Source of the DNA: Elusimicrobiota bacterium
GTDB taxonomy: Bacteria > Elusimicrobiota > Elusimicrobia > UBA1565 > JACRDR01
NCBI GenBank assembly: GCA_041694815.1
Contig: JBGFSC010000024.1
Location: forward strand, 1-34,970
Direction: 5' to 3'
DNA length: 34,970 nt
The notes under the pieces were generated by a model. That model worked only from the letters and a program-made list of their open reading frames with translations. It did no database searches and was not told the DNA's origin. Position numbers and translations under genes: made by a program. The first letter of the stretch is position 1. Every line of letters starts with the position of its first letter. This document shows positions 11,803-33,021 of this stretch, in pieces.

Positions 11803-11814
11803 CGCCTGGGTCTT

Positions 11815-11841
11815 AAGACCTATTTCGAAATAGTCTTTTTT
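11815..11841 (+). terminator. Possible intrinsic terminator
   Basis: AAGAC-CTATTTCGAAATAG-TCTT hairpin followed by a T-run just after the 11802 stop. The stem is AT-rich. Confidence 0.4.
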
Positions 11842-11879
11842 CCCTGTCCGATCCTTGGGCGCCGTTCTACGCTACTTTT

Positions 11880-14210: not shown

Positions 14211-14733
14211 AGTCCCGCTCGGCACGCGAGCCAGGGACGCCGCGAGGCATATCAAGCTAATCGGACTGATGAACGATGTCACGCTGAGGGAGTTGTTGCC
14301 CCGCGAGGCGGCCACAGGATTTGGCTTCGTGCAAAGCAAGCCTCCCTCGGCCTTCGCCCCCTTCGTCGTGACACCGCAAGAGCTGGGCCCAGCCTGGCGC
14401 GACGGGCGGCCGGATCTCAAGCTGCTCCTTCGCCTCAACGGCCGCCCGTTCGGAGACCTGAGCGCCTTCCCGATGCATTTCTCCTTCCCCGAGCTGATCG
14501 CGCACGCGGCGCGCACGCGCGCGCTTGCCGCCGGCACCATACTCGGCGGCGGCACCGTATCGAATCCGGGGGTCAGGAACGGTTTTGCCTGCATCGCCGA
14601 ACGGCGCATGGTCGAGCGGATCGCGGCCGGCGCGGCCAGCACGCCCTTTCTTAAACGGGGCGACCGGGTGGAAATCGAGGCGGTGTTGGGCGGGCGAAGT
14701 GTTTTTGGGAAGATAGAACAGAGAGTAGTATAA
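13747..14733 (+). CDS. Fumarylacetoacetate hydrolase family protein
   Basis: Motifs LDGSAYLEHV, PLMYQG, LDFEAEI, LMNDVTLR, GFGFVQSKP, GTILGGGTVSN, FLKRGDRVEIE. GTG start preceded by TGG-TAAGAT-N6. Confidence 0.92.
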   Translation: MRLATVRDPSSSLHGRLAVLAPDGRRATLAPSWPGGPPTPTLLSALENWRSALPALRKAESDIKAGRASAFALGLGSLMAPLPRSYAFLDGSAYLEHVRRARKARAAEPPPELETVPLMYQGASAPLSGPREPMRLPEGGLGLDFEAEIVVFLDEVPLGTRARDAARHIKLIGLMNDVTLRELLPREAATGFGFVQSKPPSAFAPFVVTPQELGPAWRDGRPDLKLLLRLNGRPFGDLSAFPMHFSFPELIAHAARTRALAAGTILGGGTVSNPGVRNGFACIAERRMVERIAAGAASTPFLKRGDRVEIEAVLGGRSVFGKIEQRVV

Positions 14734-14813
14734 ACGGCGGTTTTTACGCGCCTCGGGCGCGTGACTCGACGCGCTAACGCGCGTCGAGTTCGAGGTTTAG
14801 CGCGAGTATTCCG
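14732..14813. repeat. REP/MITE-like multi-hairpin element between convergent genes (copy A)
   Basis: Hairpins ACGCGC..GCGCGT and ACTCGACGCGC-TAAC-GCGCGTCGAGT (14764-14789). The first 31 nt match the reverse complement of 26165-26195 with 1 mismatch. CGCGAGTATTCCG is shared with 26126-26138. Confidence 0.8.
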
Positions 14814-14819
14814 GGTGCT

Positions 14820-16901
14820 CTACGCCTTCGCGATCTCCGCCGGCGCCTTGACCGGTATCGAGAAGATGAACTTGGCCCCTTGTCCCGGGGGGGACTCCGC
14901 CCAGATTTTTCCCTTGTGCAGCTCCACGAAACGACGGCAGATGGTCAGGCCCAGGCCAAAGCCCTTTTCCTTGCGCCCTAGGTCGAGCTGCTTGAACTTC
15001 TCGAATACGAATTGCAGCTTGTCGGCCGGTATGCCGGGGCCCGTATCGGACACGGAGACCACGGCCTCGGAAGTAGATTGTTCCACGTGGACGGTGATGC
15101 GTCCTCCCTTCGGGGTGAACTTGATCGCGTTGCCGATGAGATTGGAGATGACGCGCTGTATCTTGCGGGGCTCGGCCGGGATGGGGAAGAAGGTGCCGTG
15201 GTGGGTCAGCTCCAAGGCGATGTTCTTGCTTTGGGCCGGCAGGCCCTGCAGCACGAGCGCGTTCTGGGCCGTGGTCACGATGTTCGTGGGCTCCGGGGCC
15301 AGCTCGTATTTGCCGGCCTCCAACTTCGAGAGGTCCAGCACGTCCTCGAGCAGGTTCGTCAGCTCGCATTCCGCGCTCTGGCCCATGCGGTAGTACTGCT
15401 CCTCCTTGGGGGTCAGGGTGCGCCCCGACTTGGAGAGCTCCAAGACCATCTTGATCGTCCCGACGGGATTGCGCAAGTCGTGGATCACCGAGTTGAAGAA
15501 GTCCTCCTTCATCTGGTTGAGCTGCTTTTCGAGGCTGACGTCGTGAAATAGCAGCAGGATGCCGGATTGCTTCTTCCCCGCGGAGACCAGGGTGCCTAGG
15601 ATCTTCAGGTAGCGCGTCTCGGCCTGTCCCGCGCCGGCGACGGTGGTCTCGGCTTGGGCCCATCGCTTATCCCGGCGCAGCAGGGTCTGCGCGCAGCCGA
15701 CGACGTTGGGATCCCGGATGATGTCGGCGATGGCGGTGTTGGGCGCGATCACCGGGGTCCGACCGTGGCCCAGCAGCGCGAACACGGAGGGATTGGCGAA
15801 GAGGATGCGCCCCTGGAGATCGGCCATCAAGATGCCCTCGGGGATGGTCTGCACCAGGGCGTCGACCTTGGCTTTCTCTTCGATCACCTTCTCGACCTGC
15901 AGGTCCTGATAAGTCTTGAGCTGCTGCATCATGTGATTGAAGCGGCGAGCCAGCTCCCGCAGCTCGGGCCAGCCGCTCTCGCGCACCGGGACGTTGAAGA
16001 CGTTCGCGGCCGCCCGGCTGGACCCTTCGATGAGGTCCGACAAGGGGGTCACGATCTGCGCCGAGATCCTGCTCGCGGAGATAGCGGAGGCGGCGGCCAG
16101 CAGGCAAAAGAGCAGGGCGGCGCTCCAAAGAACGCCCTCGGCCTCCAGATAGGCCTCCTGGCGAGGCTGGACGCTGGCCAGGGTCCAGCGGAGCGGCTTG
16201 GACCGGGCGTAGGCGCCGATCCACTTCGCGCCGTCCTCCGATTTGAACTCGAGCCATCCCTCGCTCCCCTCCTCGGGGAGCGGCAATCGGGCCGGCACGG
16301 AATCCGCCATGAGCGGGAATGGCCGCCCCTGCGCGTTTACGAGCACGATGCGGCCGGATTTGCCGACCTTCTGGGCGTTCATCGTTTTCCAGAGCTTTTC
16401 CAAATTGATCCCGGCGTAGAGGAGACGGCCTTCCTTCAAGGGGTAGGCCACGGGAAGTATCGGCAGGCCGACGATCTCCGTCACCGGCCCCATGGCCGGC
16501 TCGCCTTCCTGGCGCACCGACGCGGCGATGGGACTCCAGACGGCTTGCGGGGTCTGGGCCGGGAATATCCTGGAATCGGCGATGCGCACGCCTTCTACGC
16601 CCTCGGGGCCGACGACGGACAACAGGCTGAACTCGGGCTTGGCGGCGGCCGTGACCTGGAGCAGGCGCAGCAGCAGCGGGGAATTGGGCTCGAGGCGCTG
16701 GGCATCGGGCACGAAGGAGAATAGCCCGTTGAGCTCCCGGGCGAAATCGTCGAGCGTCGCGACGTTGTTTTTGACGATCTGCTGGTGGTAATGCTGTACG
16801 TTCTTGCGGGAGACGCGCGCCACGCGCAGGATCAAGAAGCTCATGCTCGCCATGGCCACGGCGGTCCACCAGATCAAGGTGATGAAGAAGCGCCTAAACA
16901 T
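14820..16901 (-). CDS. Sensor histidine kinase (TM-Cache-like-TM-HAMP-PAS-HisKA-HATPase_c)
   Basis: H-box IHDLRNP, N-box NLIGNAIKF, G1 DTGPGI, G2 GFGLGL, PAS start LVQTIPEGIL, two TMs. Confidence 0.93.
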   Translation of the reverse strand: MFRRFFITLIWWTAVAMASMSFLILRVARVSRKNVQHYHQQIVKNNVATLDDFARELNGLFSFVPDAQRLEPNSPLLLRLLQVTAAAKPEFSLLSVVGPEGVEGVRIADSRIFPAQTPQAVWSPIAASVRQEGEPAMGPVTEIVGLPILPVAYPLKEGRLLYAGINLEKLWKTMNAQKVGKSGRIVLVNAQGRPFPLMADSVPARLPLPEEGSEGWLEFKSEDGAKWIGAYARSKPLRWTLASVQPRQEAYLEAEGVLWSAALLFCLLAAASAISASRISAQIVTPLSDLIEGSSRAAANVFNVPVRESGWPELRELARRFNHMMQQLKTYQDLQVEKVIEEKAKVDALVQTIPEGILMADLQGRILFANPSVFALLGHGRTPVIAPNTAIADIIRDPNVVGCAQTLLRRDKRWAQAETTVAGAGQAETRYLKILGTLVSAGKKQSGILLLFHDVSLEKQLNQMKEDFFNSVIHDLRNPVGTIKMVLELSKSGRTLTPKEEQYYRMGQSAECELTNLLEDVLDLSKLEAGKYELAPEPTNIVTTAQNALVLQGLPAQSKNIALELTHHGTFFPIPAEPRKIQRVISNLIGNAIKFTPKGGRITVHVEQSTSEAVVSVSDTGPGIPADKLQFVFEKFKQLDLGRKEKGFGLGLTICRRFVELHKGKIWAESPPGQGAKFIFSIPVKAPAEIAKA

Positions 16902-19233
16902 GAGGCAGGATCAGCTCCGCGCGGCCTCCGTTTTCGTTGCCCAGCACGAGGCGCCCCCCGAACCCCTCCGCGATTTTCCTGGCCGCCGCCAGCCCAATCC
17001 CGGGGCGCGAGGCCGTGATTTCGCGCAGGGGACGCGACTCCTCCAGCAGCAGCGCCGGCGGAAAGCCGCGCCCGCTGTCATGGATGCGCAAGCGGATGGC
17101 CGCCTCTGTCTCCACCCGCGCGAGGCTGACGCGCAAGCTGCCCCCGGCCGGCATCGCCTCGTAGGCGTTTTTGAGCAGTTGATACACCGCCAGCCGCAGG
17201 CGTCCCGCCTGGACGCGGATCATTGGCAGGGAGGGGGAGAATTGCCGAGTGAGGGCGATGCGCCGTTGTTTGAACGCAGCCTCCCAAGGAACTAGCGCCG
17301 ACTCGACGAGCGACGCAGCGGAGGCGGGCTCGGCCGGGTCCGCGGGGCTAAAGAGCTCGGATAAGGTCCTCAAGCGATCATGCACGCCCGAGAGCCTCGA
17401 CAACGCTGGCGCGGCGGCGCTCCGGGAAGCGGTCGGAAGGACGCCGGCGACCCTCTTTAGGTCGGAGAGGCTTCGCTGCACTCGCGCGAGCAAGGGCTTA
17501 AGCAACGCCGCGACGTCGGCCTCCGTCGCGTTCTCCTCGAGGCGGCGCAGGCATTCCTCGTGCGCCTCATGCTCTTTCGCCAGGCACTCGCGTAGCCGGT
17601 CGATTTCGCCCTGGGATTCCTGGAGGCGCCGTAGCCCGGCGGCCAGTTGCCGCCGAGCGGCCTCAGCCTCCAGGCGGACGCCGCCAAGACCCCCCAATTG
17701 CTTCTCCAGCGACGCGGCGTTCGTTTCCAGCGCGAGAATACGTTCCTGTGCTAAGGCCAGTTCCGCCTCGAGGCGCTGCCGGCGGGCCGAGTTGACCTCC
17801 AGCCTCTCCTCGAGCTCGCGCAGCCTTTCTTGCTGCGACTTCCTCTGCTCCAACGAGAGGCGGAGCTCCTCCTTGAGCCCCTCCTGGGCCCGCAACGCCC
17901 CGGCCAGCGCTTCCTCGAGGGAGGGGAGCCGGGCTTCGAGGTCTTGCAATTTCCTCGCGGTTTGACGCAGTTCCAGCTCGAGTCTTTCCTTTTCCTCGGA
18001 GAGCTGCCCGAGCTGCCGCGCCTGGAATTGGGCGGCTTGACCCAGTTCCGATCGGTGGAGTTCGAGGGTTTGAGCCAGCTCCTTTTCCTTAAGCTCGAGG
18101 GCGGAGGAAATTTTCTGGAACTGCAAGGCCGCGGCGTCAAGCCGGACACGTAAGGACTGCGACTCTTCCTCGAGGGCCTTTCGGCCTTCCTGGGCTTCTC
18201 CCAGGGCCTTTTGGAGCGCGGCCTGTTCTCGGAGTTGGCGCTGGGCCTCCTGCCGGAGCTTCTCTTCACGGGCGCGCTGGGACTTACGCTCCCGCTCCAA
18301 CTCTTCCGAATGCTCGATGGCCGCGCTTGCCAGGGTCGCCTGAAGTTTCTCAAGCTCGGCGCGTGAGATCTCCAACGCCGCGCGAAGGCCGCTGATCTCG
18401 GAGGATAGCCGGCCCCGCGCCTGCTGGGCCCTTTCCAGCTCGGATTTGAGCCCTTCGTTCTCCTGCAGGCGGGCGGCCGCGGCCGATCGCGCGGCCCGGA
18501 GCTGGTCCTCGAGGCTTTCCCGCGTCCGGTCCCACCGGCGCAGCTCTTCCTGCATGCGGCTGGCGCGGAGCTCATCGTCTTGGGACTTAAGCTGCGCCTG
18601 ATCCCAATCGGCGCTCAGTTCGCGTTTTCGGGATTCATTTAAATCGCGCCCCAGGCGCTCTTTTTCCGCGCGCAATGCCGCCGCTTCGGCCTGCGCCGCG
18701 GAGATGGAATCTTGGAGCGAGCGATTTTCCGCCTCCAGCCTCTGGCAGCGTTCCTGGAGAGGTGAAAATTCGACGGACATCCGCTTTTTTTCCTCGAGAA
18801 GCCGGATCGATTCCGATTGGAGCCTCAGGATTTCCTGCGCCAGAAGCGCCTGTTCCTGTTCGGCGCCCTCGTTTTTTTCCCTAGGCCGGAGCAGTATCCT
18901 CTTTAATTCCTCCAAGAGGCTTTGGAACTCGAAGACGTTCTTGAGCCCCGAGGCCGAGGCGCGGGCCTCGAGCTTCGGCAGGGCTTCCTCCGTGAAGAGC
19001 AGCCAACGCCCCTCCATACGGCGGCGGGCTTCCTCCAGCTCGAGCTCCCGTATTTGAAGCCGCTTCGCCAGGGCCTTGAGCCGGGAGATCTCGGCGCGGA
19101 TGGACGCGTCGTCCGCCGGACCGGAGGGCATCCCCAATAGGGCTTCCTGGAGGGCCATGAGGAAGGCGCTCAAGGCGGGAAGATCCGATTCCCCGGTGTT
19201 TTCGACCCTGGGAAGGGGAAGTTTCTCTTCCAT
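16894..19233 (-). CDS. Long coiled-coil protein with C-terminal HATPase_c domain and degenerate (His-less) DHp region
   Basis: About 550 aa of E/Q/R/L heptads, then QLLKNAYEAM, IHDSGRGF, GIGLAAARKI. No H-box visible. Confidence 0.85.
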   Translation of the reverse strand: MEEKLPLPRVENTGESDLPALSAFLMALQEALLGMPSGPADDASIRAEISRLKALAKRLQIRELELEEARRRMEGRWLLFTEEALPKLEARASASGLKNVFEFQSLLEELKRILLRPREKNEGAEQEQALLAQEILRLQSESIRLLEEKKRMSVEFSPLQERCQRLEAENRSLQDSISAAQAEAAALRAEKERLGRDLNESRKRELSADWDQAQLKSQDDELRASRMQEELRRWDRTRESLEDQLRAARSAAAARLQENEGLKSELERAQQARGRLSSEISGLRAALEISRAELEKLQATLASAAIEHSEELERERKSQRAREEKLRQEAQRQLREQAALQKALGEAQEGRKALEEESQSLRVRLDAAALQFQKISSALELKEKELAQTLELHRSELGQAAQFQARQLGQLSEEKERLELELRQTARKLQDLEARLPSLEEALAGALRAQEGLKEELRLSLEQRKSQQERLRELEERLEVNSARRQRLEAELALAQERILALETNAASLEKQLGGLGGVRLEAEAARRQLAAGLRRLQESQGEIDRLRECLAKEHEAHEECLRRLEENATEADVAALLKPLLARVQRSLSDLKRVAGVLPTASRSAAAPALSRLSGVHDRLRTLSELFSPADPAEPASAASLVESALVPWEAAFKQRRIALTRQFSPSLPMIRVQAGRLRLAVYQLLKNAYEAMPAGGSLRVSLARVETEAAIRLRIHDSGRGFPPALLLEESRPLREITASRPGIGLAAARKIAEGFGGRLVLGNENGGRAELILPHV

Positions 19234-19243
19234 AATGGCGCGC

Positions 19244-20785
19244 TTAAATGACTTCGGTCGTCCTGGCCGCCTTGATATTCAATTGGCCTTGATCGGCCAA
19301 CGCCAAGGCCTGCGAAAGTATCTTGGAGCGGGCCTCGAGAACCTTCTCCTTGGGCTGGGCAAGCTCGAAGGATTCTTGAAAAGTCGATCTCATGCCGGCC
19401 GGAAATAGCGAAGTTACGCGCTCCGCGAACTCCTGATCGGCGCCCCTCAGCGCGGTGGCCCATACCTGTATCGGCAGCAGGAAGGCGAGTTTCCGGAGGT
19501 CCTCTACCTTCATCGCCGCCAGGTCCTCGAAGGTCACCAGAGAGTTCTGCACCTCCTGGCTGGCCTGCGCGTCCACGCGCGAGAGGTCGCCGAGAATGAT
19601 TTCGCGCTCCTGAGGCCCGAGCCGGCTGAGGATGAGACCCAGCTTGTCGGTCCCCTTGAGGCGGGTCTCCACTTGGGTGCGCAGGTGGCCTTCTAGTATG
19701 TCGATGCGTTCCGGGTCGGCCTGGCGAAGCCGGACCATCGCCTTGGACACCTCCAATTGGACCTGCGGTGACATGTTCGAGAAAAGAAGGGTGCCCAGCT
19801 CGGTCTGCCGGTCCGCCAGCCAGCTGAAAAGCAGCGCTAAATCCTCCGGCGGCTCCCCCTCGAGTATTTGCGCCACCTCCTGGGCGGGGTGCCCCGCGAG
19901 GAAGCCGAAGCGCTCCTGGGCTTCCAGGGCGAGGGTCGGCGTGGCAGCCGCCTCGGTCGTGTCCAAGGTCGGGGGGCCCTCGGCGCCGAGCATTTCCGGC
20001 TCGGCGGCCGGAGGCATCTCGGGAGCTTGCTGGGGCATTTGCTGGCGGTGCAGCAGGGCTTGCGCGAGGGTGCGCATGCCCCAGACGAACAGGACGCCGA
20101 GGACGAGCCCCGTCGCCAGTAGGCCGACGACGATCATGGAATGGCTGAGCGCGGTCTTGAAGATGTCCGGAGAGAGCAGGAGCCTCTTCCACATGGGGGT
20201 CAGCGAGGCGCGTACCAACACGATGCTGTCTCCGCGCAGCACGTTGAGCCGCAGCATGTCGGCGAGTACCTTGCGCACCGCTTCGGCCTGGGTCTGCGGT
20301 ATGGCCGTGTCGACGAGCAGGGAGACATTGATCTTGTTGACCTGGAAGTTGGAGCGCCGGGATTCCTGCTGGTCGCGCTGGAAAATCGTATTGTTTTTTT
20401 CCTGAACGTAACGGTAGGACTTATCCATCAATTCGGATGGCACGTAATAGGGTGCGTAGCCGGGCATGGCATCCCTTTCCATACGCGTAGTGCTTTGTTG
20501 GGCAAATCCTGGCGCCCCGACGACTCCCTCCTGCTCTGATGTCGCGTTTTGGCCGGGCTTGTCTATGGGTGTTTGTATATCGGTGCTGGTTTTCGTTTCG
20601 CTGCGCTCTCCTTCCACCGTGATCAGGACCTTGGCACGACCCGGTCCCAGCAGCTGCTCGAGCAGGGCGGAGGAATCTTCCACGAGTCTTGCGGCCAATT
20701 CCGTTTCCTCGACCGAGACGGCGGCGGCGGAATAGGGGAGAAATAAAAAAGAGAACAGAAATATGGATAAAACACGCCTTCCCAT
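19244..20785 (-). CDS. Fusion of a FliF C-terminal (RBM3/beta-collar-like) ring domain, a TM and FliG middle/C-terminal domains
   Basis: ATG 20785 with GGAGGA RBS and signal peptide. FliF_C-like LLEQLLGPGRAKVLITVE...INVSLLVD...RGDSIVL. TM at MIVVGLLATGLVLGVLFVWG. FliG-like EGEPPEDLALL (cf. EHPQ), LVTFEDL (cf. MFxFEDL), WATALRGAD. Confidence 0.8.
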   Translation of the reverse strand: MGRRVLSIFLFSFLFLPYSAAAVSVEETELAARLVEDSSALLEQLLGPGRAKVLITVEGERSETKTSTDIQTPIDKPGQNATSEQEGVVGAPGFAQQSTTRMERDAMPGYAPYYVPSELMDKSYRYVQEKNNTIFQRDQQESRRSNFQVNKINVSLLVDTAIPQTQAEAVRKVLADMLRLNVLRGDSIVLVRASLTPMWKRLLLSPDIFKTALSHSMIVVGLLATGLVLGVLFVWGMRTLAQALLHRQQMPQQAPEMPPAAEPEMLGAEGPPTLDTTEAAATPTLALEAQERFGFLAGHPAQEVAQILEGEPPEDLALLFSWLADRQTELGTLLFSNMSPQVQLEVSKAMVRLRQADPERIDILEGHLRTQVETRLKGTDKLGLILSRLGPQEREIILGDLSRVDAQASQEVQNSLVTFEDLAAMKVEDLRKLAFLLPIQVWATALRGADQEFAERVTSLFPAGMRSTFQESFELAQPKEKVLEARSKILSQALALADQGQLNIKAARTTEVI

Positions 20786-20807
20786 GATGTCCTCCAAGTG
20801 CGCCAAT

Positions 20808-20836
20808 ACTATAAAGGGATTTCCCAGGGCGCGCAA
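20808..20836 (-). promoter_or_regulatory. Sigma70-type promoter for the FliF-FliG fusion transcription unit
   Basis: TTGCGC (20836-20831), 17 bp, TATAGT (20813-20808). Confidence 0.6.
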
Positions 20837-20844
20837 TATCTAAA

Positions 20845-22167
20845 TTATTTCAAGGGAAGGAGGAAGAAAAACCGGCTTCCCTTGCCGGCATCGGATTCGA
20901 CGCCGATGCGACCCTCATGCAATTCGATGATCGATTTGGAGATCGCCAGGCCCAGGCCGCTGCCGGAGGCCTTGAGCTGGTTTGGCACGCGCTGGAAGGG
21001 GGCGAAAATGCGGCTTAAGGCGTCCTGAGGGATGCCGACGCCGGAATCCCTAACGCTGCATTCGATGAATTTCCTTCCCTCGGTATCCTTGCGGTGTGCC
21101 TCCACGGTGATCGACCCGCCGCGGGGAGTGAATTTAATCGCGTTCGAAACGAGATTGGCGATGACCTGGGTGATCAGGTCCGGATCCAACTTCATCGCGG
21201 GCGGCAAATCCCCGTTGGACAGCAGCTGGAGGCTTATGCCCGCCTCCTTCGCCTTCGGCTCGAAGAACAAGACGGCATCCTCGATGAGCGCCTTGACATT
21301 CGTCGCCTGGGCGTGCATGTCGAGCTTTCCCCGCTCGATCTTGGCCATCTCGAGTACGTTGGTGACGAAATGCCCGAGGCGCGTGGCGTTGGACTGGATG
21401 CGCCGGAGCATGTCGAGCTCGGTCTGGCTGCGGCCCTCGTTCTCCGAAAGGATGAGGCGCACGCAGCTCTCGATGGAGGCCAGCGGGGACCTGAGCTCAT
21501 GCGTGACGGAGGCGATGAAAGTCTTCTTCATGGCCTCTAGCTCCTGTAACTTTTGGGACATCACGTTGATGTTGGAGGCCAGGCGGCCGATTTCGTCCTG
21601 GCCCTTGACGCTGGTGGTCACCCCGAACTTCCCTTCGCCGATGGCCTCTAGGGTCTTGCCGAGCGAGCCGATGCGCCTTGACAAGCTTAGGCTCAGGACC
21701 AGGGCCAAAAGCAGCGCGAACGGCAATACGGTATAAAGGCTCTTTTGCATGTTGCGCAAAGCCATTTCGCCGGCGGTTCGGCGTTTGGCCTGCAGATAGG
21801 AGTTGGAAAAGGCGATGGTGATGGAGCCCTTATCGGTGGATACGCTCTTGATGAACACGTCGGCGGCGGCCCGTTTCGGTCTGGGTTCGACTCGCGTCGT
21901 CGCCCCGTTGCGCGTTAGCTCGAAATAGGCCAGTTCCGGGCGGTTGGCCAGCAGCGCCTTGAGCCCGTCGATGAGCATGAGCGGATCCCTGGAGAACTCG
22001 GCCTCTTCCTCCAATCGCCGCGCGTCTTGGGCGATTCGTTCGATGCTTTCGTTTTCGGCCTCGCTGAGGGAATCTTCATGTAGCTTAAGATAATTGACCG
22101 CGACCAGGGCGGCCGCGGCCAGGGCGGTCGACAGGAAGCCGAAAGCCAGCTTGGCTCGTATACTCAT
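20845..22167 (-). CDS. Sensor histidine kinase (TM-periplasmic-TM-HAMP-HisKA-HATPase_c)
   Basis: Start at MSIRAKLAFG (22167). HAMP DEIGRLA, H-box THELRSPL, NLVSNAIKF, DSGVGI, GSGLGL. Confidence 0.93.
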   Translation of the reverse strand: MSIRAKLAFGFLSTALAAAALVAVNYLKLHEDSLSEAENESIERIAQDARRLEEEAEFSRDPLMLIDGLKALLANRPELAYFELTRNGATTRVEPRPKRAAADVFIKSVSTDKGSITIAFSNSYLQAKRRTAGEMALRNMQKSLYTVLPFALLLALVLSLSLSRRIGSLGKTLEAIGEGKFGVTTSVKGQDEIGRLASNINVMSQKLQELEAMKKTFIASVTHELRSPLASIESCVRLILSENEGRSQTELDMLRRIQSNATRLGHFVTNVLEMAKIERGKLDMHAQATNVKALIEDAVLFFEPKAKEAGISLQLLSNGDLPPAMKLDPDLITQVIANLVSNAIKFTPRGGSITVEAHRKDTEGRKFIECSVRDSGVGIPQDALSRIFAPFQRVPNQLKASGSGLGLAISKSIIELHEGRIGVESDAGKGSRFFFLLPLK

Positions 22168-22171
22168 GCCA

Positions 22172-24139
22172 TCATTGGCCTCGCCGCACGCGCTGCAGGG
22201 CTTTCTGGGCCTGGGCGTTGCCTGGATCGAGGGCCAGGATGCGTTGGAAAGCCGCCGTGGCGAGCACGTTCTCGCCGCGCGCGTAATGCTCCATGCCTTG
22301 CTGGTAGAGCTTCTCGATGAGTCGCGGATCGGCGGGGCCCTGGGGTATGGAGGGCTCGACCGCGATAGCTCCCGGTGCCTCGACTCGTCGGACGGGCCGT
22401 TCGGGGAGCGGCGGCTGCTGGGCCGGCTGCTGCGGCGCCGCACCAAGCGCCTTCTGAGCCTCGGCGATATAGCGCTCGAGCGCCGCCCGCTCGACCGGGG
22501 CCGTTTCCATTTTCAGCGCCTGCGTCCAGATCGCGATGGCCTCGGGATAGTAGCGCATCATGTAGAAGGCGCTGCCCACCTGCTTGTAGGAGCGCACGTC
22601 GCCAGGCTCGATCTCCATGGCATCGCGCGCGTCGTCTAAAGCGTTCTGATAATTACGGCTGTCGAAGGCGGACTGCGAGGAGGCGTGCTTCTCCTCGAGC
22701 AGGTTGCGGCTGCCCGAGGGCCTCTCGGCTTGTATCTGCGTGGCATGCTCGAGGTTGTCCAAATACTTGGGGAGCTTGAGCTCCTTATGGTTGAGGCTGG
22801 CGGCGTAGGAGACAAGCAGCATGGCGCGGCGGTCCTTGCCGTAGGCGAAGGCGCGGCTGCCGTTGGCGATGGCCACCTGCCAGCGCTCCTGCGGGTCGCG
22901 AATCTCCGGGAAGCTCGCGGAGATGAGGTCCAGGCGCTTGGCCAGGGCCGCCAGGGCCGGATCCTCGGGAAGGCCGCTCATGATCCTCGTCAGTATCTGG
23001 TAGGCCATCAAGAACTCCCCGGCCTCGATCCTGTCCTTGACTCCCTGCAGCTCGGGCCGGTCCAGGTTGGCCGGGTTCGACAATTCGTTGGATTCGTATC
23101 CGAAGGGGGTCTTTCGCAGGTTCTGCATCTTGCTGACGAGCTCCTTGGAGAGCTGCTCCTCGCTCGTCATCGCGCCGAAGTGGAACGAGAGCCCCATCCG
23201 ATGAGTGCCCGCGGTGCCGCTAACGCCGGAGATCGGCATGAGGAAGGCGTAATCGGCCTGTATCTTGTTGATGATGTAGGAAAGGCCGATGCTGATCTGC
23301 CTAAATTCCCGGCTTCCGATGGCCAGGCCCGCCCGCACGCCGAGTGTCCCCAGATCGAAGGAGGGGAAAAAGCGCTCGCCGGCTAAGACCGCGTCCTGGT
23401 CCAGAGTCCCCTTCGGCGATTTCTGCATGCCGAGCTCGGCGGCCAGATTCATCCAGAGGCTCTTGAAGCCGAAACCAAGTTTGGTGCGCATCGGCAGCTT
23501 GTCGGTGCCGGCGAATCCCACGTCCGGCTGATTGAGATGGCTGACCGAGAGGGCGAAGGAATAGCGCCGCGGGGTCCGATAGAGCAGTCCGACATCGGTA
23601 TCGTAGGCCGTCTTGCTTTGGGAGCCGCTGAGCACGGGGTCCGGGATTCCCGATCGGACCTGATTGTTCAAGAAGGCGTTGCCGGCCTCATCGCCCGGCG
23701 CGAAGGATCGGTTGAGATGCTTGAAGTTCAAGCCGGCGAAAATATTACCCCATCCCTCCCGTTTGTAAAGGAGGCGGCCATAGGAGAGGGCTATCGTGCG
23801 TTCGTTGTAGATCGAATTGAGCTTGAAATCCTTCCATGCGAGGCCGAGAGTTCCCCAGCGACCCCGCTTGAGCGGATGGGCATAGGCGATGTCGGACTGG
23901 CCCAGGTTCGAGCTGTCGGCCAAGCCCATGTAAAATTGGGCGTAGGTCAAGCCCAGCTGCGGGCGCTCGAGAGTCGCCAATCCGGCCGGATTGTAATGAA
24001 TCGCGTAGACGTCGTCGGCGATCGCGGAGAAGGCGTTGCCCATTCCAGGCGCGCGCGCGCCGGCGCCCATATCCTCGAAGGCGGCCTCGGCCGCGCCGAC
24101 GGAACCGAGCAGGATGGCGGTCCAGAGCAGGCGCTTCAT
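22172..24139 (-). CDS. Outer-membrane beta-barrel (PorV/PorP-SprF/FadL-like) fused to C-terminal TPR repeats
   Basis: Signal peptide and N-terminal plug motif GAGARAPGMGNAFSAIADDVYAIHYNPAGL. Alternating beta strands end at THRMGLSFHFG, followed by TPR-like helices (e.g. AFQRILALDPGNAQAQKAL). Confidence 0.82.
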   Translation of the reverse strand: MKRLLWTAILLGSVGAAEAAFEDMGAGARAPGMGNAFSAIADDVYAIHYNPAGLATLERPQLGLTYAQFYMGLADSSNLGQSDIAYAHPLKRGRWGTLGLAWKDFKLNSIYNERTIALSYGRLLYKREGWGNIFAGLNFKHLNRSFAPGDEAGNAFLNNQVRSGIPDPVLSGSQSKTAYDTDVGLLYRTPRRYSFALSVSHLNQPDVGFAGTDKLPMRTKLGFGFKSLWMNLAAELGMQKSPKGTLDQDAVLAGERFFPSFDLGTLGVRAGLAIGSREFRQISIGLSYIINKIQADYAFLMPISGVSGTAGTHRMGLSFHFGAMTSEEQLSKELVSKMQNLRKTPFGYESNELSNPANLDRPELQGVKDRIEAGEFLMAYQILTRIMSGLPEDPALAALAKRLDLISASFPEIRDPQERWQVAIANGSRAFAYGKDRRAMLLVSYAASLNHKELKLPKYLDNLEHATQIQAERPSGSRNLLEEKHASSQSAFDSRNYQNALDDARDAMEIEPGDVRSYKQVGSAFYMMRYYPEAIAIWTQALKMETAPVERAALERYIAEAQKALGAAPQQPAQQPPLPERPVRRVEAPGAIAVEPSIPQGPADPRLIEKLYQQGMEHYARGENVLATAAFQRILALDPGNAQAQKALQRVRRGQ

Positions 24140-26217
24140 TTGATCACCACCACGGTGCCGTTATACACCTTGCCATCGCCCTCGAGCTGATAGATATAGA
24201 CCCCACCCGGGACGGCGTTGCCGTTCGCCTTCCCGTCCCAAATCATATGGAACTGGTCGGTTTGCGACAGGGTGGTCACGAGCCTGCCCTGCACGTCGAA
24301 GATCTTGCCCGAGATCGCGGAATCCTTGGGGTTATCAAAGGTGAACTGGATATTATCGTTGAGGCCGTCGCCGTTGGGGGTGAGGAACTTGTGCGAGAGC
24401 CCCGAAAGATCGAATTCGGTCGCCGATTGGCGGGTCACCGTCCGGAGCTGGTACTCTCCAACTACCTGGGTCGGGACGGTGACGAATTGGTTGAGCTTAT
24501 CCGCGTTTCCGTAGACCTTTACGTACTTGGCGCCATTGTTCCAGTACATGCCCGTTTGATCCGGGGTCGCCGCCGCCTGAGCCTTCACCGTGCCGTCCGG
24601 ATTCGTCTGATAGCTCAAACGGACGTAAACGATGTTGGAGAATTGGAAGGATTTGGGCCCCTCGGCCGCGTTTTGGGTGAGCAATTGGAAGTTGGCGTTG
24701 TTGAGGATGTTCGAGCCCGAGGCGGCGATCTGGCTGCTGGACCTAAGCCAGTAAGCGACGCTGGGGTCGTTGTCGAGCGATCCGAGGGCGCTCAAGGGGA
24801 TCAGCATATGGGAGCGTTGATCGGGCGCCAAAACCCATCCCGAACGGCTGTTTAAGTCGCGGATGATCGAGGAGTATGAGTTATCCGAGAGATTGGCCGC
24901 GGTGACGCGGTAATACGTGCCGGCGACGGGAGCCGGGTCGGTGTATTGCAAAGTGGAGCTCGAGACGGTAGCCAGAAGGGTCCAGTTCGGATTAGAAATA
25001 CCGGTCGATCGCCAGATGTGGAACCACTTGAGCTCGTCTTCGCTGGGATTGGAAGGGCTGGCGAAGGCCTGTCCGAAATCATACGCGACGGGGGCGGTCC
25101 AGGCCAGGGTGGCGCTTGAGGAGAACACGGAGAGGGAGAGGCGCAAAGGCGGCGTCGGGGGCGCGCCGCGGACGAGTAGGGAGGCCAATGCGGCCGCGGT
25201 GATCTCCTGATTGCCCGAATTGAGGCCGAAGAGCTGGTAATAATAAGTCGTCGCCACCGTGAGGGGCGAGTCGATGACGGAGGTCGAGCTCGTCGAAGTC
25301 AGGACGGTGAAGCCGCTTCCCGAATTCGTCGACCGGTAGAGGCGGTAGGCGACCGGGGTGCAGTTTCCAGGCACTCCGGCGGCCGCGTTCCAACTGAGAA
25401 GCCCTGATTTAAACCGGGGGACCGCGGTAAAGCCGCTTAATATCGAGCCGACTCCAGGGTATGAGGTGGTTGCGGAAAGCAGGGCCGCCGGAGAGAGATC
25501 CGCCTCCAAGGCCAGTATCGCGAAGTAGTAGGTGACGCCGTTTTGAAGTCCGGTCAGGGTCAGGGTCTGCGTGGTGCCTTGGACCGCGGGGGTGGGGGCG
25601 GCCGGAGTCACGCTTTGGGCCGAATAGAACAAGGTCTCGGAGGCGGCGGGGGAGAGGGCGGGGTCGGAGCTGAGCTTGATGAGATAGGATCTTGCCGCCG
25701 TCTGCGCCGCGTAGCCGTCGTTGCCGGGGGCGATCCAGCTTAGCGTGATCTGCGAGGCGACGCAGCCACTGACGCTGAAATTGCTGACCTGGCCGGGATA
25801 AAAGTAGATCGGGATCAGCCCGGAGCGCGCCAGAAAATTAGCGCTGGTTTGCGTGCTGGATCCGATTTCCCCGATGGTCGAGATGGATTGGAAGCTGTTG
25901 GAGTTTTGAGTGCCGCCCCCGGCGTCGATCGCCGAGCGTCCGTTCTTATACCCGCTGCTCGTCGAAACGAAGGCTTGGGCGGGGAGGGCGAGGGATAACA
26001 ACAGCAGGGCTAGGCTTGGGAGTGAGCTTTTACGCGCTTTGGGCGCGTGACTCGTCGCGTTTTGTTTTCGCGGTGCCAGGGATTGACTTTCGCCTAGGCG
26101 AAAGTCAATCCCTGGCACCAGTTTCGCGAGTATTCCGAACTTGGCACGCGTAGCGTGCCAAGCAACGCGCCCGAGGCGCGTAAAAGCCGCCGTTTCAGAC
26201 GGAGGGCCAAAAATCAC
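24136..26217 (-). CDS. Secreted Ser/Thr-rich FN3-repeat protein with gliding-motility-associated (T9SS type-B/CHU_C-like) C-terminal domain
   Basis: FN3 motifs ITLSWIAPG, LTGLQNGVTYYFAI, YRLYRST. CTD motifs FLTPNGDGLND, KIFDVQGRLV, WDGK, GVYIYQL. GTG start preceded by TATGTT-N6. Signal h-region SLALLLLSLALPAQA is displaced by an inserted element. Confidence 0.85.
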   Translation of the reverse strand: MIFGPPSETAAFTRLGRVAWHATRAKFGILAKLVPGIDFRLGESQSLAPRKQNATSHAPKARKSSLPSLALLLLSLALPAQAFVSTSSGYKNGRSAIDAGGGTQNSNSFQSISTIGEIGSSTQTSANFLARSGLIPIYFYPGQVSNFSVSGCVASQITLSWIAPGNDGYAAQTAARSYLIKLSSDPALSPAASETLFYSAQSVTPAAPTPAVQGTTQTLTLTGLQNGVTYYFAILALEADLSPAALLSATTSYPGVGSILSGFTAVPRFKSGLLSWNAAAGVPGNCTPVAYRLYRSTNSGSGFTVLTSTSSTSVIDSPLTVATTYYYQLFGLNSGNQEITAAALASLLVRGAPPTPPLRLSLSVFSSSATLAWTAPVAYDFGQAFASPSNPSEDELKWFHIWRSTGISNPNWTLLATVSSSTLQYTDPAPVAGTYYRVTAANLSDNSYSSIIRDLNSRSGWVLAPDQRSHMLIPLSALGSLDNDPSVAYWLRSSSQIAASGSNILNNANFQLLTQNAAEGPKSFQFSNIVYVRLSYQTNPDGTVKAQAAATPDQTGMYWNNGAKYVKVYGNADKLNQFVTVPTQVVGEYQLRTVTRQSATEFDLSGLSHKFLTPNGDGLNDNIQFTFDNPKDSAISGKIFDVQGRLVTTLSQTDQFHMIWDGKANGNAVPGGVYIYQLEGDGKVYNGTVVVIK
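26026..26195. repeat. MITE/REP-like composite element (copy B) with a central 48-bp perfect palindrome, inside the 5' end of a CDS
   Basis: 23-bp inverted ends (26026-26048 and 26165-26187, 2 mismatches). Palindrome GGTGCCAGGGATTGACTTTCGCCT|AGGCGAAAGTCAATCCCTGGCACC at 26072-26119. Confidence 0.88.
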
Positions 26218-26326
26218 CTTAAAAACATAACCGACTTAAGCGAAATTCTTGTTACGGGAGAACGAATTCTGCGCAACTTTGAGGCCTCAAAAAAGGCCTA
26301 AAAATAGAGGCTTTTTACGTGGTTTT

Positions 26327-27904
26327 TCAGGGTAGAGTTGGAACCGTTCCGGAATGGCCCAATTGAATGGCCACGCGGGCGCCCCCTGAAGGGCCGTTTG
26401 AGAGGCGAATCGACCCTCCGAAGCCGAGCACCAGTTGTTTGACGAGGGCCAGGCCCAATCCCGCGCGACCGGCGCTGGCGGGCCGGAAGGGCACGAAGGG
26501 CTGCGCCAAAACTTCCTTTGGGAAGCCGGGGCCGTTATCGATGAAGCGAAGCTCGATGGCCCCGGGAACCGGAGCGGCCTCTAGGGTCAGCGTGCCTCCA
26601 CGCGGCATCGCTTCATAAGCGTTGCGGAGCAGGTGATGCACCGCCATGCGCAGGCGCTCCGGATGCAGCAGGCAGGGCACCAGGCCCGTGGAGTAGCGCT
26701 TGATCATGGTGATGTTGCGCCGCCTTAATGCCCCGCTCCAGGGCCGAACGGCAGAATCGATAATCGGCAGGGGATTCGACAGGGCGGGTTTGGGCGCGGG
26801 GGAGAAAAATGCGGCACCAGATTTGAGCATTTCCTGGACCTGGGCCAAGGCCGCTGCCGCCGCAAGCGCGTCTTTGGGCGGAAGGGGCCTTGAGGAGGCC
26901 TGCCGCAGCCTGGTGAGGGCGTCGCCCAGGGGAGGCAGCGCGGCTTCGAACAGCTTGAGCACATCGGGCTGCAGCAGGGAGTCCAAGGGGACCGGGGGAG
27001 GTGCGGAGGACGCCCGGCGCAGGCGCTCGTTTTCTTCCCGGGAATGCTGCAGCCGTTCCTGCGCCAATCCCAGCTCGAGCCTCGTTTTTGCGGCGGCTTC
27101 TTGGGAGGCGTTTAATTCGGCCTCGAGCTTTTGGACTCGGCGTTGGGCCTGGCCCAATAGGATTTCCAGGCCTTGGGCGCGCTCGCGGCTCTGCTCGATT
27201 TCCCGCTGGATCTGCTCGGCCTGCGCCATGGCGGCGGCGTTTTCCCGGGAAAGCCGATTATTTTCCCAGCTGCGCAGGGCCAGCAGGTTGACCGCTTCGC
27301 GCAGGGCGTCACGGGCCTCCTGCATGGCCTGGGAGAGCCGGGAGGGCGGGACGTTAAAATGGGGCGGGGGAGGGGCCTTTCGTTGGCGGATGCGTTCGAT
27401 GCGGCGCTCGAAACGTCGGCCCTTTTCCAATAGCCGGATCACTTCATGCTGCAAGCGGCTTAACTCCTGCGTCAGCAATGCGCGCGCGAATTCCCGGTCA
27501 GCGGCGGAGCGCGGAGGGCCGAGCAACGCGTCGCGGACGTCGATGAGCAGGGCGTGAAAACGGAATACATCGTCCAAGCCGTTCTTAGCGAGGGTTTCTT
27601 GAAGCTGCGGCAAGGCGCCGGCGGAGAATTCCTCCCAGCGGCGGGTCAGCTCGGAGCGATGTCGGGCTAATTCCGACTGCGTCGCCTCCAGCCGGATGGA
27701 AAGCCCGGATACTCTTTCCAGCAAAGCCCGTATTTCCTCGCGTTCGGATTGGGGGCCCAAAAAAGACAGGCGCAGCAAGACTTCTTTAACGGCGGCAGAC
27801 AGGGCCGCGAGATCGAGCACGGCATTTTCGGGGGCCGCCGGCTCCGGCTTCGAGGGCGTGCGGGCTTTTTCGGAGTCCTGATCTCTAGGGACTGGATCGT
27901 CCAT
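26327..27904 (-). CDS. Coiled-coil + HATPase_c protein without H-box; paralog of 16894-19233
   Basis: HLLRNAYEAM, FIDNGPGF, GLGLALVKQL. The N-terminal RWEEFSAGALPQL...GLDDVFRF aligns with RWLLFTEEALPKL...GLKNVFEF. Confidence 0.85.
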   Translation of the reverse strand: MDDPVPRDQDSEKARTPSKPEPAAPENAVLDLAALSAAVKEVLLRLSFLGPQSEREEIRALLERVSGLSIRLEATQSELARHRSELTRRWEEFSAGALPQLQETLAKNGLDDVFRFHALLIDVRDALLGPPRSAADREFARALLTQELSRLQHEVIRLLEKGRRFERRIERIRQRKAPPPPHFNVPPSRLSQAMQEARDALREAVNLLALRSWENNRLSRENAAAMAQAEQIQREIEQSRERAQGLEILLGQAQRRVQKLEAELNASQEAAAKTRLELGLAQERLQHSREENERLRRASSAPPPVPLDSLLQPDVLKLFEAALPPLGDALTRLRQASSRPLPPKDALAAAAALAQVQEMLKSGAAFFSPAPKPALSNPLPIIDSAVRPWSGALRRRNITMIKRYSTGLVPCLLHPERLRMAVHHLLRNAYEAMPRGGTLTLEAAPVPGAIELRFIDNGPGFPKEVLAQPFVPFRPASAGRAGLGLALVKQLVLGFGGSIRLSNGPSGGARVAIQLGHSGTVPTLP

Positions 27905-29036
27905 TGCCGCTGAGTGTAGGGGCCTGCTGTTTCATTGTCAATGCCTTAAGCGCCTCCGCGTTAGCGCGGGCATCGGGGCCCAACACGAAGCGATGCAGGG
28001 ATGAGCGGCGCAGCAGGGAAACGGCGCTTGCAAGGCGTTTAAATCCTATCTGACCGAGCTTGGAGATGGTGGAAGGAGAAAATCCCAGCGTGTATTCGCT
28101 CATCTGCGCGATACCGACGCCGACGACCATATGCTCGAAAAGGGCCGCCAGGGCCTCCAGGGGCGAGGCCGTCTCGATGCGCGGCTCGGCGCCGCGTCGG
28201 CCGATGAGCAGCCAGCGAAGAGGGATATCCTCTCGAACCTTATGGGAGAAGAAGTCCAGATCGACCAATTTTTTCGGCCCGTAATGTTTTCGAACGAAAG
28301 GCCGAATCCAATCCTCCGGGACGTCGGAGAGATCCATGGATGGCTCCAGTCCCAGGCGCAGGGGAAAAGCCAGGACGCGGTCGCCGCGAAGGAGCGGCGT
28401 ATCCTCCGAGAGTATCCCGAACTCCCAGCGGCGGAGTAGCTCCAACGCGAGCGTGCTCTTGCCTCCACCCGAGGGCAGTAGCAATAGGCCTGCCTCCCCG
28501 CCGGCCTCAAATCCCAGGGCGTGGATTCGATGCATGCCGGCAAGGTCCAAGGCTTCGCCGGAGCGCGACAAGATCGCTAGATAAGCGAGCTCATGCAGTC
28601 GCGTCAAATTCTCGCAGTAAATGCTGCCTTTTTTTGCCTCATAATCGTAGTCGGCCGAGGCGTCGCCGTAATCGATCATGCGGACTTTGTTTTTCTGATA
28701 AACGCGGTAACGGCTGGTCTGAAATAATGGGCGCCCCGCGGCGGCCGCCGGCGCTTGGGTCCGATGTAATTCTAGAATGATGGCCGGGATGGCCCTCTGT
28801 TTTGACGGTGCCAGGGATTGACTTTCGCCTTGTTCTGATGGTGCCAGGGATTGACTTTCGCCTTGTTTTGATGGTGCCAGGGATTGACTTTCGCCTAGGC
28901 GAAAGTCAATCCCTGGCACCTTTGTAACGTTGATAACGAAATATTTAAAGTCCAGCGCCAGCGGTTGCAGTATCGCCGGGTCGGAGGCCAACACTTGAAC
29001 GCTCACTCCGTGGATGTCTAGATCCAATCGATTCAT
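27885..29036 (-). CDS. HPr-kinase-like P-loop protein carrying an in-frame palindrome/repeat insertion
   Basis: Start MNRLDLDIHG overlaps the GT2 stop (ATGA). HRIHA...GLLLLPSGGGKSTLA...LSED pattern typical of HprK-related kinases. Confidence 0.75.
   Translation of the reverse strand: MNRLDLDIHGVSVQVLASDPAILQPLALDFKYFVINVTKVPGIDFRLGESQSLAPSKQGESQSLAPSEQGESQSLAPSKQRAIPAIILELHRTQAPAAAAGRPLFQTSRYRVYQKNKVRMIDYGDASADYDYEAKKGSIYCENLTRLHELAYLAILSRSGEALDLAGMHRIHALGFEAGGEAGLLLLPSGGGKSTLALELLRRWEFGILSEDTPLLRGDRVLAFPLRLGLEPSMDLSDVPEDWIRPFVRKHYGPKKLVDLDFFSHKVREDIPLRWLLIGRRGAEPRIETASPLEALAALFEHMVVGVGIAQMSEYTLGFSPSTISKLGQIGFKRLASAVSLLRRSSLHRFVLGPDARANAEALKALTMKQQAPTLSGNGRSSP
28798..28920. repeat. Three 33-bp direct repeats ending in the same 48-bp palindrome (copy C), in frame
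   Basis: 24-bp core at 28807, 28840 and 28873, each preceded by TGTTYTGAY. Palindrome 28873-28920 is identical to 26072-26119. Confidence 0.92.
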
Positions 29037-32973: not shown

Positions 32974-32980
32974 GCCTTCT

Positions 32981-33007
32981 ATACGATTGAGCGGGGGTAA
33001 AAGTTCC
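32981..33007 (-). promoter_or_regulatory. ECF-sigma-like promoter
   Basis: GGAAC (33007-33003), 17 bp, CGTAT (32985-32981), 7 bp, ATG. Confidence 0.65.
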
Positions 33008-33021
33008 ATGCGTTTAGTATA

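Follow-up and report, generated by a model that had tools for sequence, protein, structure and literature searches.

A locus of an Elusimicrobiota bacterium (GenBank assembly GCA_041694815.1) raised the question why a fusion of two flagellar rotor proteins has genes for an outer-membrane barrel, a surface protein and sensor kinases as its neighbors. The locus lies on contig JBGFSC010000024.1 (C41), which was analyzed whole and is called the window (34,970 nucleotides, nt). Seven co-oriented genes occupy its minus strand from 27904 to 14820. They encode a cargo protein with FN3 domains and the type-B C-terminal domain (CTD) of the type IX secretion system (T9SS), a PorV/PorP-type barrel with a TPR arm, two sensor kinases, two coiled-coil HATPase proteins and the fusion of FliF and FliG domains. 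FliG and flagellar-type MotAB stators are treated as hallmarks of the flagellum. We lean, if only slightly, towards reading the run as one copy of a conserved, non-flagellar, proton-driven rotor-stator envelope system that is coupled to the barrel and the surface protein and is under two-component control. That the parts work together is suggested most strongly by the cargo-barrel-ring-stator neighborhood, which is kept in two gene lineages that are about 20% identical.

The FliF/FliG fusion

The fusion comprises, in order, a signal peptide, FliF RBM3 with a beta-collar, one transmembrane (TM) helix, a linker of about 40 residues and the middle and C-terminal (MC) domains of FliG. The RBM3/collar region scored 37 bits against Pfam YscJ_FliF_C (cut-off 23.8). 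FliG_C and FliG_M scored 58.5 and 26.2 bits, both above their Pfam cut-offs. RBM1/2 (Pfam YscJ_FliF, PF01514) gave no match in the protein and 0 matches in the whole genome.

An AlphaFold2 (AF2) model was built from an alignment of 13 orthologs and had a mean predicted local distance difference test score (pLDDT) of 73.4 and a predicted template modeling score (pTM) of 0.34. It contained a signal-like N-terminus followed by a domain of helix, long beta-hairpin, helix and strand with a disordered insertion. The distal part consisted of the single TM helix, the linker, which was disordered, and an all-helical C-terminal half. In Foldseek searches of the PDB FliG MC ranked first (1lkv, 8.1e-9; 3hjl, 2.3e-8). 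The FliF RBM3/collar S-ring was matched at E-values of 3e-6 to 2e-5 (8z5v, 3.1e-6; 6sd3, 4.0e-6; 8z4g, 6.6e-6) and SpoIIIAG much more weakly (E 0.019). It is from RBM3/collar that the 33-35-mer S-ring of FliF is built in these solved structures. When the alignment profile of the fusion was compared to the PDB, Thermotoga maritima FliG MC was matched end to end (E 3.4e-30). The fusion of a FliF ring domain to FliG, which had been proposed from the sequence alone, was therefore borne out at the level of fold.

The FliG_C motifs F-E-D and A-L-[KR]-G-A are retained in the fusion family. A Leu-Pro-Gly motif is kept in the otherwise variable tip loop of the collar hairpin, both in the window type and in a second type encoded on contig C38, which is described below.

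Flagellar genes in the host genome and the phylum

The host genome is 2.77 Mb in 54 contigs and is 97.8% complete. In a six-frame search of the whole genome YscJ_FliF, FHIPEP, FliP, Flagellin_N, Flg_bb_rod and FliMN_C each gave 0 matches; the flagellar-gene searches were positive in 4 flagellated control genomes of 14. The window fusion is thus not simply the fliF and fliG of a complete flagellum, as the sequence-only reading had anticipated. A role in a real flagellum was considered and rejected because no FlhA, FliP, flagellin, rod, FliM/N or FliF N-domain was found.

The distribution of these genes was taken from 201 sampled genomes of the phylum. FliG_C was present in 71, always above the Pfam cut-off, and FHIPEP in 5. 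The 66 genomes that were positive for FliG_C and negative for FlhA each carry between one and six long fused genes with FliG_C; the FliF part was confirmed in the two families examined. Canonical-length FliG open reading frames (ORFs) of 335-356 amino acids (aa) occurred in four of the five FHIPEP genomes (G102, G104, G139 and G202) and in G160; the FliG_C match of G158, the fifth FHIPEP genome, lay within a 121-aa open frame. The remaining FliG_C ORFs were roughly 470-960 aa long, a few truncated frames aside. Flagellated G104 has 675-aa and 497-aa FliG_C ORFs alongside its 335-aa FliG, so the fused forms can occur in one genome with a true flagellar set.

These data bear on the idea that the run is the decaying remnant of a lost flagellum. 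Flagella do exist or existed in the phylum, as the five genomes with FlhA, some of them with a canonical-length FliG, indicate. The frames are intact, however, and are present in multiple copies in many genomes that are negative for FlhA. The fused architecture, the motifs and the stator Asp are all conserved, and flagellated G104 has its long forms besides a FliG of 335 aa. A remnant is extremely improbable.

The 24 closest named database homologs of the fusion (E<=1e-10) were all hypothetical proteins of Elusimicrobia. Look-alike clusters of FliF_C, FliG_M and FliG_C were found in a protein atlas in Pseudomonadota, Cloacimonadota, Bdellovibrionota, Bacteroidota and Thermodesulfobacteriota.

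Conservation of the neighborhood

The arrangement of the run is beyond chance, since it recurs in relatives and since FliG_C loci lie near MotA_ExbB loci in the host genome. The fusion was matched in 37 of 41 relatives. Gene order of the window type was scored in 12 of the 14 best non-self loci, G033 and G021 being left out as short contig stretches. In 11 of these 12 order-level loci the barrel-TPR, kinase and fusion genes are adjacent. The CTD cargo gene lies upstream in 10, the Cache kinase is present in 10 and MotA with MotB in 9. Misses are partly contig ends (L033 and L035), while L039 is truly without the barrel side. A further 11 loci were taken, nine from other families of the phylum and two as long paralogs from the order. 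The barrel gene stands by the FliG-like gene in 9 of them and MotAB are present in 8, often with everything on one strand. Synteny was one of three points on which the sequence-only reading stood to fall, and it is conserved. A related-loci scan with a 5-sequence alignment of the fusion gave 5 loci, all from Elusimicrobia; the single protein as query gave none.

In L051, L053 and L056 all genes are on a single strand and include two tandem MotB genes. A tandem MotB pair after a single MotA was seen in L051, L052, L053, L056 and L068, with plug and OmpA domains in each where scanned (L053 and L056). Such pairs hint at heteromeric or alternative B subunits.

The host genome itself carries four fusions (C41, C34/C7, C15 and C38) and four MotA-type stators (C7, C29, C15 and C38). 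The FliG_C search gave 4 matches (C38, C7, C41 and C15), and three of these are less than 3 kb away from one of the 8 MotA_ExbB loci. A second fusion of the window type spans a contig break, with one part at the end of C34 and the other at the start of C7, where a coiled-coil HATPase gene, MotA and MotB come after it. Beyond this MotAB pair C7 carries a convergent Cache kinase gene, a receiver-PilB ATPase gene and two response regulator genes. On C15 a 514-aa FliF_C/FliG-like protein is encoded with MotA, MotB and a TPR protein. C29 (14851-17904) has no FliG-like gene close by; it encodes a receiver protein, an OmpR-type regulator, MotA and MotB in an order that matches the regulator-regulator-MotA-MotB run that adjoins the cluster in the relative L037. 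The C29 pair is likely an unlinked stator for the window fusion. Flagellar-type MotAB and response regulators are thus part of the conserved neighborhood in relatives and are at unlinked or paralogous loci in the host genome.

The second system is on C38 (100534-106617). It consists of a giant 2074-aa protein with a CTD-like end, a PorV-family barrel-TPR protein, a 650-aa FliG_M/FliG_C fusion with a C-terminal cytoplasmic TPR region, two proteins of no recognized kind, one of them the 457-aa protein of no known family mentioned next, MotA and MotB. Its barrel scored 98.4 bits against PorV_fam, above the cut-off of 90. Orthologous loci were found at L063-L072. Twelve loci of this type were chosen from high-scoring 600-700-aa FliG_C ORFs. 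The barrel gene is directly upstream in 10 of the 12, MotAB are downstream in 8, a CTD protein is upstream in 8 and the 457-aa protein is present in 9. MotA identity was 55-78% in seven of the eight loci bearing MotAB and 40% in the eighth. Over RBM3, the TM helix and FliG_MC the two fusion types, that of the window and that of C38, are homologous, with an hhalign probability of 99.9 and an E-value of 2e-36 (441 columns, 20% identity). The C38 type is the more widely conserved of the two.

The genes could also be independent modules, a triad of cargo, barrel and kinase and a unit of FliG-like protein and MotAB, that share a neighborhood or a regulator and form no complex. On C50 and on C2 the triad (CTD cargo, barrel-TPR, HAMP kinase) stands alone, and FliG-like protein with MotAB occurs with no adjacent barrel at L052, L073 and C15. 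The joint arrangement is nevertheless kept in two deeply diverged paralogous systems and in many families, often with overlapping or near-abutting genes, and unconnected modules are considered quite improbable.

Type IV pilus ATPase genes adjoin paralogous clusters at L015:6341-8125 (C7) and L017:17390-19998 (C50). One of the ATPases has an N-terminal receiver domain; the second carries MshEN, and its gene precedes a PilC-like gene. A link to pilus control is possible. Alongside the C2 triad, on the opposite strand, is a CsgG/FlgO/LpoB-like lipoprotein gene (L018:5651-6472).

Stators

A profile of seven cluster-linked MotA proteins gave 10 PDB matches at E<=0.001. All were flagellar MotA/PomA (best 1.5e-71), and no ExbB or TolQ was among them. 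The MotA proteins also aligned full-length to NCBIfam PomA/MotA/MotP, far better than to TolQ/ExbB, with all scores below the equivalog cut-offs. Their MotB partners have MotB_plug and OmpA domains and keep an Asp at the head of the TM helix, which we take to be the ion-binding residue. By their sequences the stators are of the flagellar type, in which MotA has four TM helices and a large cytoplasmic torque interface, both those that partner the cluster in relatives and those on C7, C29, C15 and C38.

At the stator-rotor interface of Escherichia coli R90 pairs with D288/D289 and E98 with R281, according to PMC12505986. The MotA column aligned with the Arg of the RREG motif of solved MotA is Lys or Arg in six of seven sequences, and the column at the following Leu-Glu is Gln, Ser or Val. 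Where T. maritima FliG has the Asp of its KDE triplet, the torque helix of the fusion is acidic in 12 of 13 aligned sequences. The column of the Arg in the T. maritima SKRAA stretch is Gly (8) or Glu (5).

Cargo, barrel and the T9SS inventory

The cargo CTD scored 38.9 bits against TIGR04131 (NCBIfam cut-off 35) and 31.8 against CHU_C (cut-off 27), identifying it as type B. Paralogs of the cargo are on C50 and C2. The barrel start overlaps the cargo stop by 4 nt and the pair is kept in 10 of the 12 order-level loci. In Bacteroidota it is the rule that a type-B CTD gene adjoins the gene of its cognate PorP/SprF protein. The window barrel scored 33.9 bits against PorP_SprF, above the Pfam cut-off of 22.3. 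Its AF2 model (pLDDT 79.7) shows a beta-barrel at about residues 61-320 and, C-terminal to it, TPR helices over some 330 residues. Foldseek matched it to FadL (2.7e-9) and to PorV in the SprA translocon (6h3i_F, target-normalized TM-score (TMt) 0.62, root mean square deviation 5.1; 8gl6_F, TMt 0.59). The predicted PorV/PorP-like fold was in this way upheld. The model supports an outer-membrane barrel of the FadL/PorV/PorP type with a putative periplasmic TPR arm. In some barrel paralogs the arm terminates in LysM.

The label T9SS-like is apt for the cargo/barrel pair, and for that pair only. The inventory of T9SS core components covered GldL, GldM and SprA. A SprA/Sov-like protein of 1824 aa is encoded at C19:8844-14318 (TIGR04189 E 9.2e-42, 142.5 bits, cut-off 200). 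No T9SS genes are among its neighbors and it is unlinked to the cluster. A SprA-like protein of about 1800 aa was found in 175 of the 201 genomes, none above the SprA cut-off, including 57 of 59 in the family f4. That its presence tracks the system was rejected, as it also occurs in families with neither FliG_C nor type-B CTD.

On this evidence a further explanation was weighed, that the ring and MotAB energize T9SS-like secretion. They would power export of the type-B CTD protein through a SprA-like giant barrel, with the PorP/PorV-like barrel as carrier or anchor. It would account for a type-B CTD above cut-off next to a PorP/PorV-type barrel, for the SprA-like protein in the genome and for the empty searches with the GldM and GldL models. 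The SprA-like protein does not depend on the system, however, given its wide distribution. It scored below the SprA cut-off and its gene lies elsewhere, and the GldL/GldM negatives have no positive control. Such an energizer is fairly improbable.

Kinase-type proteins and a possible sensing role

The run encodes four kinase-type proteins. Pfam HisKA phospho-acceptor and HATPase_c domains were present in the products of 14820-16901 and 20845-22167, making these two ordinary membrane sensor kinases. The HAMP kinase gene starts 4 nt past the end of the barrel gene, and a kinase occupies the same slot in 11 of the 12 order-level loci. Full-length orthologs of the Cache kinase (32-38% identity) adjoin the cluster in 9 of the 12, a tenth being cut by a contig end, and a paralog on C7 is 37% identical.

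The 525-aa and 779-aa coiled-coil proteins are paralogs, 35-38% identical at both ends, and the 779-aa protein gave SMC-like coiled-coil matches in the NCBIfam scan. Members of this family vary greatly in length (about 250-960 aa) and have a common C-terminal region of about 200 residues. In an alignment of 16 members the N, G1 and G2 boxes of the ATP-binding domain are conserved, and no conserved phospho-acceptor His was found in the 100 columns before the N box; neither window protein matched HisKA. Judged from these alignments, the two are kinase-like ATP-binding proteins and not demonstrably autokinases. A member directly follows the fusion in 8 of the 12 order-level loci and is present somewhere in the locus in 11.

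Another explanation is a sensing device or static scaffold. The ring and MotAB would sense mechanical force or proton-motive force, and their state, determined by the load on the barrel or surface protein, would be read by the kinases, which would signal to OmpR- and CheY-type regulators controlling, for example, type IV pili or surface proteins. Consistent with this are the four kinase-type proteins, the place of a kinase between barrel and fusion, and the response regulators that share an operon with MotAB at C29 and in a relative. The receiver-PilB ATPase and PilB/PilC genes after paralogous loci would also fit, as would the failure to find the canonical switch partners FliM/N in the genome. 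A full stator with plug, Asp and peptidoglycan anchor, together with a complete FliG_C and, in the C38 type, a MotA kept at 55-78% identity, seems more than a sensor needs, and sensing and work can coexist. A purely sensory or static role is unlikely.

Gene run, junctions and repeats

ORF calls and Pfam, with concordant NCBIfam and fold searches, placed all seven genes of the run as the sequence-only reading had described them (Table 1). Its account of gene contents stands. Two starts call for correction: the HAMP kinase most likely begins at 22167 rather than 22446, and that of the FN3 ORF is in doubt.

Table 1. Features of the gene run in the window.
Feature	Position	Strand	Evidence
Coiled-coil HATPase protein, 525 aa	26327..27904	-	Pfam HATPase_c 9.5e-17
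FN3 cargo with T9SS type-B CTD	24136..26217	-	Pfam fn3 1.9e-8 and CHU_C 1.6e-7
PorV/PorP-type barrel with TPR arm, 655 aa	22172..24139	-	Pfam PorP_SprF 3.2e-8 and TPR
HAMP-HisKA-HATPase sensor kinase, 440 aa	20845..22167	-	Pfam HAMP/HisKA/HATPase_c
FliF(RBM3/collar)-TM-FliG(M+C) fusion	19244..20836 (likely start 20785)	-	YscJ_FliF_C 5.7e-9, FliG_M 9.7e-6, FliG_C 9.4e-16
Second coiled-coil HATPase protein, 779 aa	16894..19233	-	Pfam HATPase_c 1.5e-11
Cache-HAMP-PAS sensor histidine kinase, 693 aa, final gene of the run	14820..16901	-	dCache/HAMP/PAS/HisKA/HATPase_c
Dispersed repeat with 48-nt perfect palindrome	26020..26200		blastn against the genome and sequence inspection

By coordinates, adjacent genes overlap or stand at most 10 nt apart at five of the six junctions, in agreement with the close spacing noted earlier. 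These five are the cargo/barrel overlap of 4 nt, the barrel/HAMP kinase gap of 4 nt, the HAMP kinase/fusion gap of 8 nt (59 nt if the fusion starts at the ATG at 20785), the fusion/779-aa HATPase gap of 10 nt and the 779-aa HATPase/Cache kinase overlap of 8 nt. The sixth, between the 525-aa HATPase and cargo genes (26327 to 26217), is a 109-nt gap that contains the dispersed palindromic repeat.

When 26020-26240 was compared to the genome by blastn, 140 matching segments were found on many contigs and both strands, mostly between genes. Further copies lie at 28798-28920 and at 14732-14792, the latter just beyond the 3' end of the run, so the run is bracketed by copies of the repeat. The first 60 or so codons of the FN3 ORF are the repeat read in frame. 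The ORF start at 26217 is probably spurious, and a signal-peptide-like stretch starts near 26050.

Elsewhere in the window, the middle of a 547-aa ORF at 27885-29528 is inflated by the dispersed repeat, with an 11-residue unit three times in tandem. The region 2-14210 contains seven large ORFs of 472-936 aa, all on the plus strand except for 3088-4668 on the minus strand, none matching a Pfam family at gathering level. The large ORFs at 1-14210 were considered as members of the system and dropped, having no Pfam family and no homolog near the cluster in relatives. The contig itself begins in a repeat at which the assembly breaks, as its first 50 or so codons match six other contigs at their ends. 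Three tandem genes at 32500-33981 on the minus strand encode retropepsin-like aspartyl proteases of 169, 157 and 160 aa (Asp_protease_2/gag-asp_proteas). Upstream of them are genes for a family-2 glycosyltransferase and for a multi-TM protein of 824 aa that includes a large TPR domain.

Proposed mechanism and points against it

In the rotor-stator reading the fusion is predicted to assemble through RBM3 and the collar into a large inner-membrane ring, in which each subunit would carry its own FliG M+C into the cytoplasm. Stators resembling MotA5B2, anchored to peptidoglycan through the OmpA domain, would push on FliG_C using the proton gradient. The mechanical output would pass to the barrel and its cargo, so that the surface protein would be moved, put under tension, released or helped in its export; we infer this because the barrel-TPR and CTD proteins are the only conserved periplasmic or outer-membrane partners. 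The sensor kinases, coiled-coil ATPases and CheY-like and OmpR-like regulators would control or read out the motor.

A more specific version is held tentatively and with some doubt. Torque would pass from the ring collar to the TPR arm of the barrel and drive or tension a type-B-CTD adhesin, in a new class of rotary envelope machine with neither export gate nor rod. The Leu-Pro-Gly loop at the collar tip may be the point of contact with the arm. A complex prediction that paired residues 326-655 of the barrel protein (the TPR arm) with residues 21-205 of the fusion (its periplasmic domain), run on custom alignments, scored 0.11 against a mark of 0.32, which is silent on binding either way.

Several observations weigh against the rotor-stator reading. 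For the fusion, FliG_N gave no Pfam match in the protein and the TIGR00207 (fliG) score was 52.6 bits against a cut-off of 226.7. The structural matches to RBM3 reached a TMt of only about 0.5, and the pTM of 0.34 makes the domain arrangement in the model unreliable. In the profile alignment the FliM-binding EHPQR motif is reduced to E-x-P. If the E. coli residue numbers given above fall on the MotA and fusion columns as we assume, one interface charge pair would be kept and the second changed on both sides. The periplasmic part of the fusion is short, and reaching the outer membrane would require a bridge.

Other points concern the partners. The window barrel scored below the NCBIfam cut-offs for PorV_fam (58.8, cut-off 90) and T9SS_PorP_fam (30.7, cut-off 90.55), and it was not recovered in a whole-genome PorP_SprF search. 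The GldM and GldL TIGR models gave 0 matches in the genome and none in the control genomes either, so this search had no positive control. Neither MotA, MotB nor a response regulator was found in the window by tblastn (best E 0.13), and for the regulator this agrees with what had been noted from the sequence. The C29 stator is assigned solely from the gene order of relatives. L039, L052, L055, L073 and L074 have no adjacent barrel, and MotAB were not seen in several stretches.

Co-distribution in the phylum adds little. Type-B CTD was found in 63 of the 201 genomes, above cut-off in 32. Both FliG_C and type-B CTD occur in 56 genomes, the CTD alone in 7 and neither in 123; in 15 genomes FliG_C is present and type-B CTD went undetected. 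The co-distribution is statistically weak and is not independent evidence, because it is driven largely by two big families of small-genome, gut-associated bacteria without both features (f4, 0 of 59 each; f12, 1 and 2 of 63).

The earlier proposal that flagellar rotor parts were repurposed with T9SS-like outer-membrane parts is supported. Synteny is conserved, the genome was found to have no complete flagellum and the structure searches agree with the FliF and barrel folds. Its function, be it secretion, adhesion, movement or sensing, and the physical contact of its parts are as yet inferred.

Comparison with known systems

No description of a fusion of FliF(RBM3) and FliG(MC) with MotAB and a T9SS-type barrel and cargo was found in the literature searched, in Elusimicrobia or elsewhere. 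Motility, pili, FliG, MotA and secretion are unmentioned in the main text of the groundwater Elusimicrobia genome paper; preprint supplements were outside the search. A 2025 phylogenetic study (PMC12505986) placed flagellar stators in one flagellar clade. If the rotor-stator reading is true, flagellar-type stators and FliG would not be exclusive to flagella. The system would offer a new route by which inner-membrane energy is carried to the cell surface and a window on a rotor core that functions, now or once, without secretion and filament. If it is a sensor instead, it would be a new use of the rotor-stator pair in signaling. Whether FliG and flagellar-type MotAB belong to flagella only is made testable by the Elusimicrobiota genomes that have FliG_C and no FlhA. 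Where examined, FliG_C genes in such genomes sit with flagellar-type stators, a barrel and a T9SS-type surface protein.

A natural precedent is the FliF-FliG fusion of Chlamydiaceae. According to Bergeron 2016 (PMC4768692), it is about 330 aa long, RBM2-like, without a SpoIIIAG-like RBM3 and with only a FliG_M-like region, and it is discussed there in relation to the injectisome. Both are natural fusions of a FliF-like periplasmic ring domain, a TM helix and a FliG-like cytosolic domain, and by the same source the chlamydial host is not thought to be flagellated either. Set against that account, the present fusion differs in having RBM3/collar and both FliG_M and FliG_C, in its partners MotAB and barrel, and in a genome in which FlhA was not found. 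SpoIIIAG resembles the fusion in its RBM3-like ring-building domain with a beta-collar, but it is without FliG domains or stators and the structural match to it is much weaker than that to FliF.

Gliding and T9SS in Bacteroidota (SprB-SprF) share the type-B CTD cargo gene adjoining a PorP/PorV-type barrel gene. There the MotAB-related GldLM motor is thought to act on outer-membrane and surface proteins (PMC8986121; bioRxiv 2024.09.23.614571). The present system instead has flagellar-type MotAB and a FliG ring in place of GldLM, a barrel with a long TPR arm and a host in the phylum Elusimicrobiota. In the Agl-Glt gliding machinery of Myxococcus a TolQR-like AglRQS motor and TonB-like linkers are combined with periplasmic proteins rich in TPR, with barrels in the outer membrane and with an adhesin on the cell surface. 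Its logic is similar, but it uses AglRQS and TonB-like linkers and not FliF/FliG or a flagellar-type stator.

The flagellar rotor itself is matched in the RBM3/collar and FliG M+C folds and by stators whose structural matches are only to flagellar MotA/PomA. One FliG is present for each FliF subunit, as in engineered FliF-FliG fusions, which still form rings according to PMC11481574 and bioRxiv 2023.02.06.527414. The differences are that RBM1/2, FliG_N, FliM/N, export gate, rod, hook and filament were not found here and that the window fusion has a signal peptide and a single TM helix, with EHPQR lost and one charge pair changed. It is also encoded with an outer-membrane barrel, a CTD cargo and kinases. 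An ion-driven stator acting with a ring rotor is already known, and the architecture of the whole system would be a new kind of machine if its output were confirmed.

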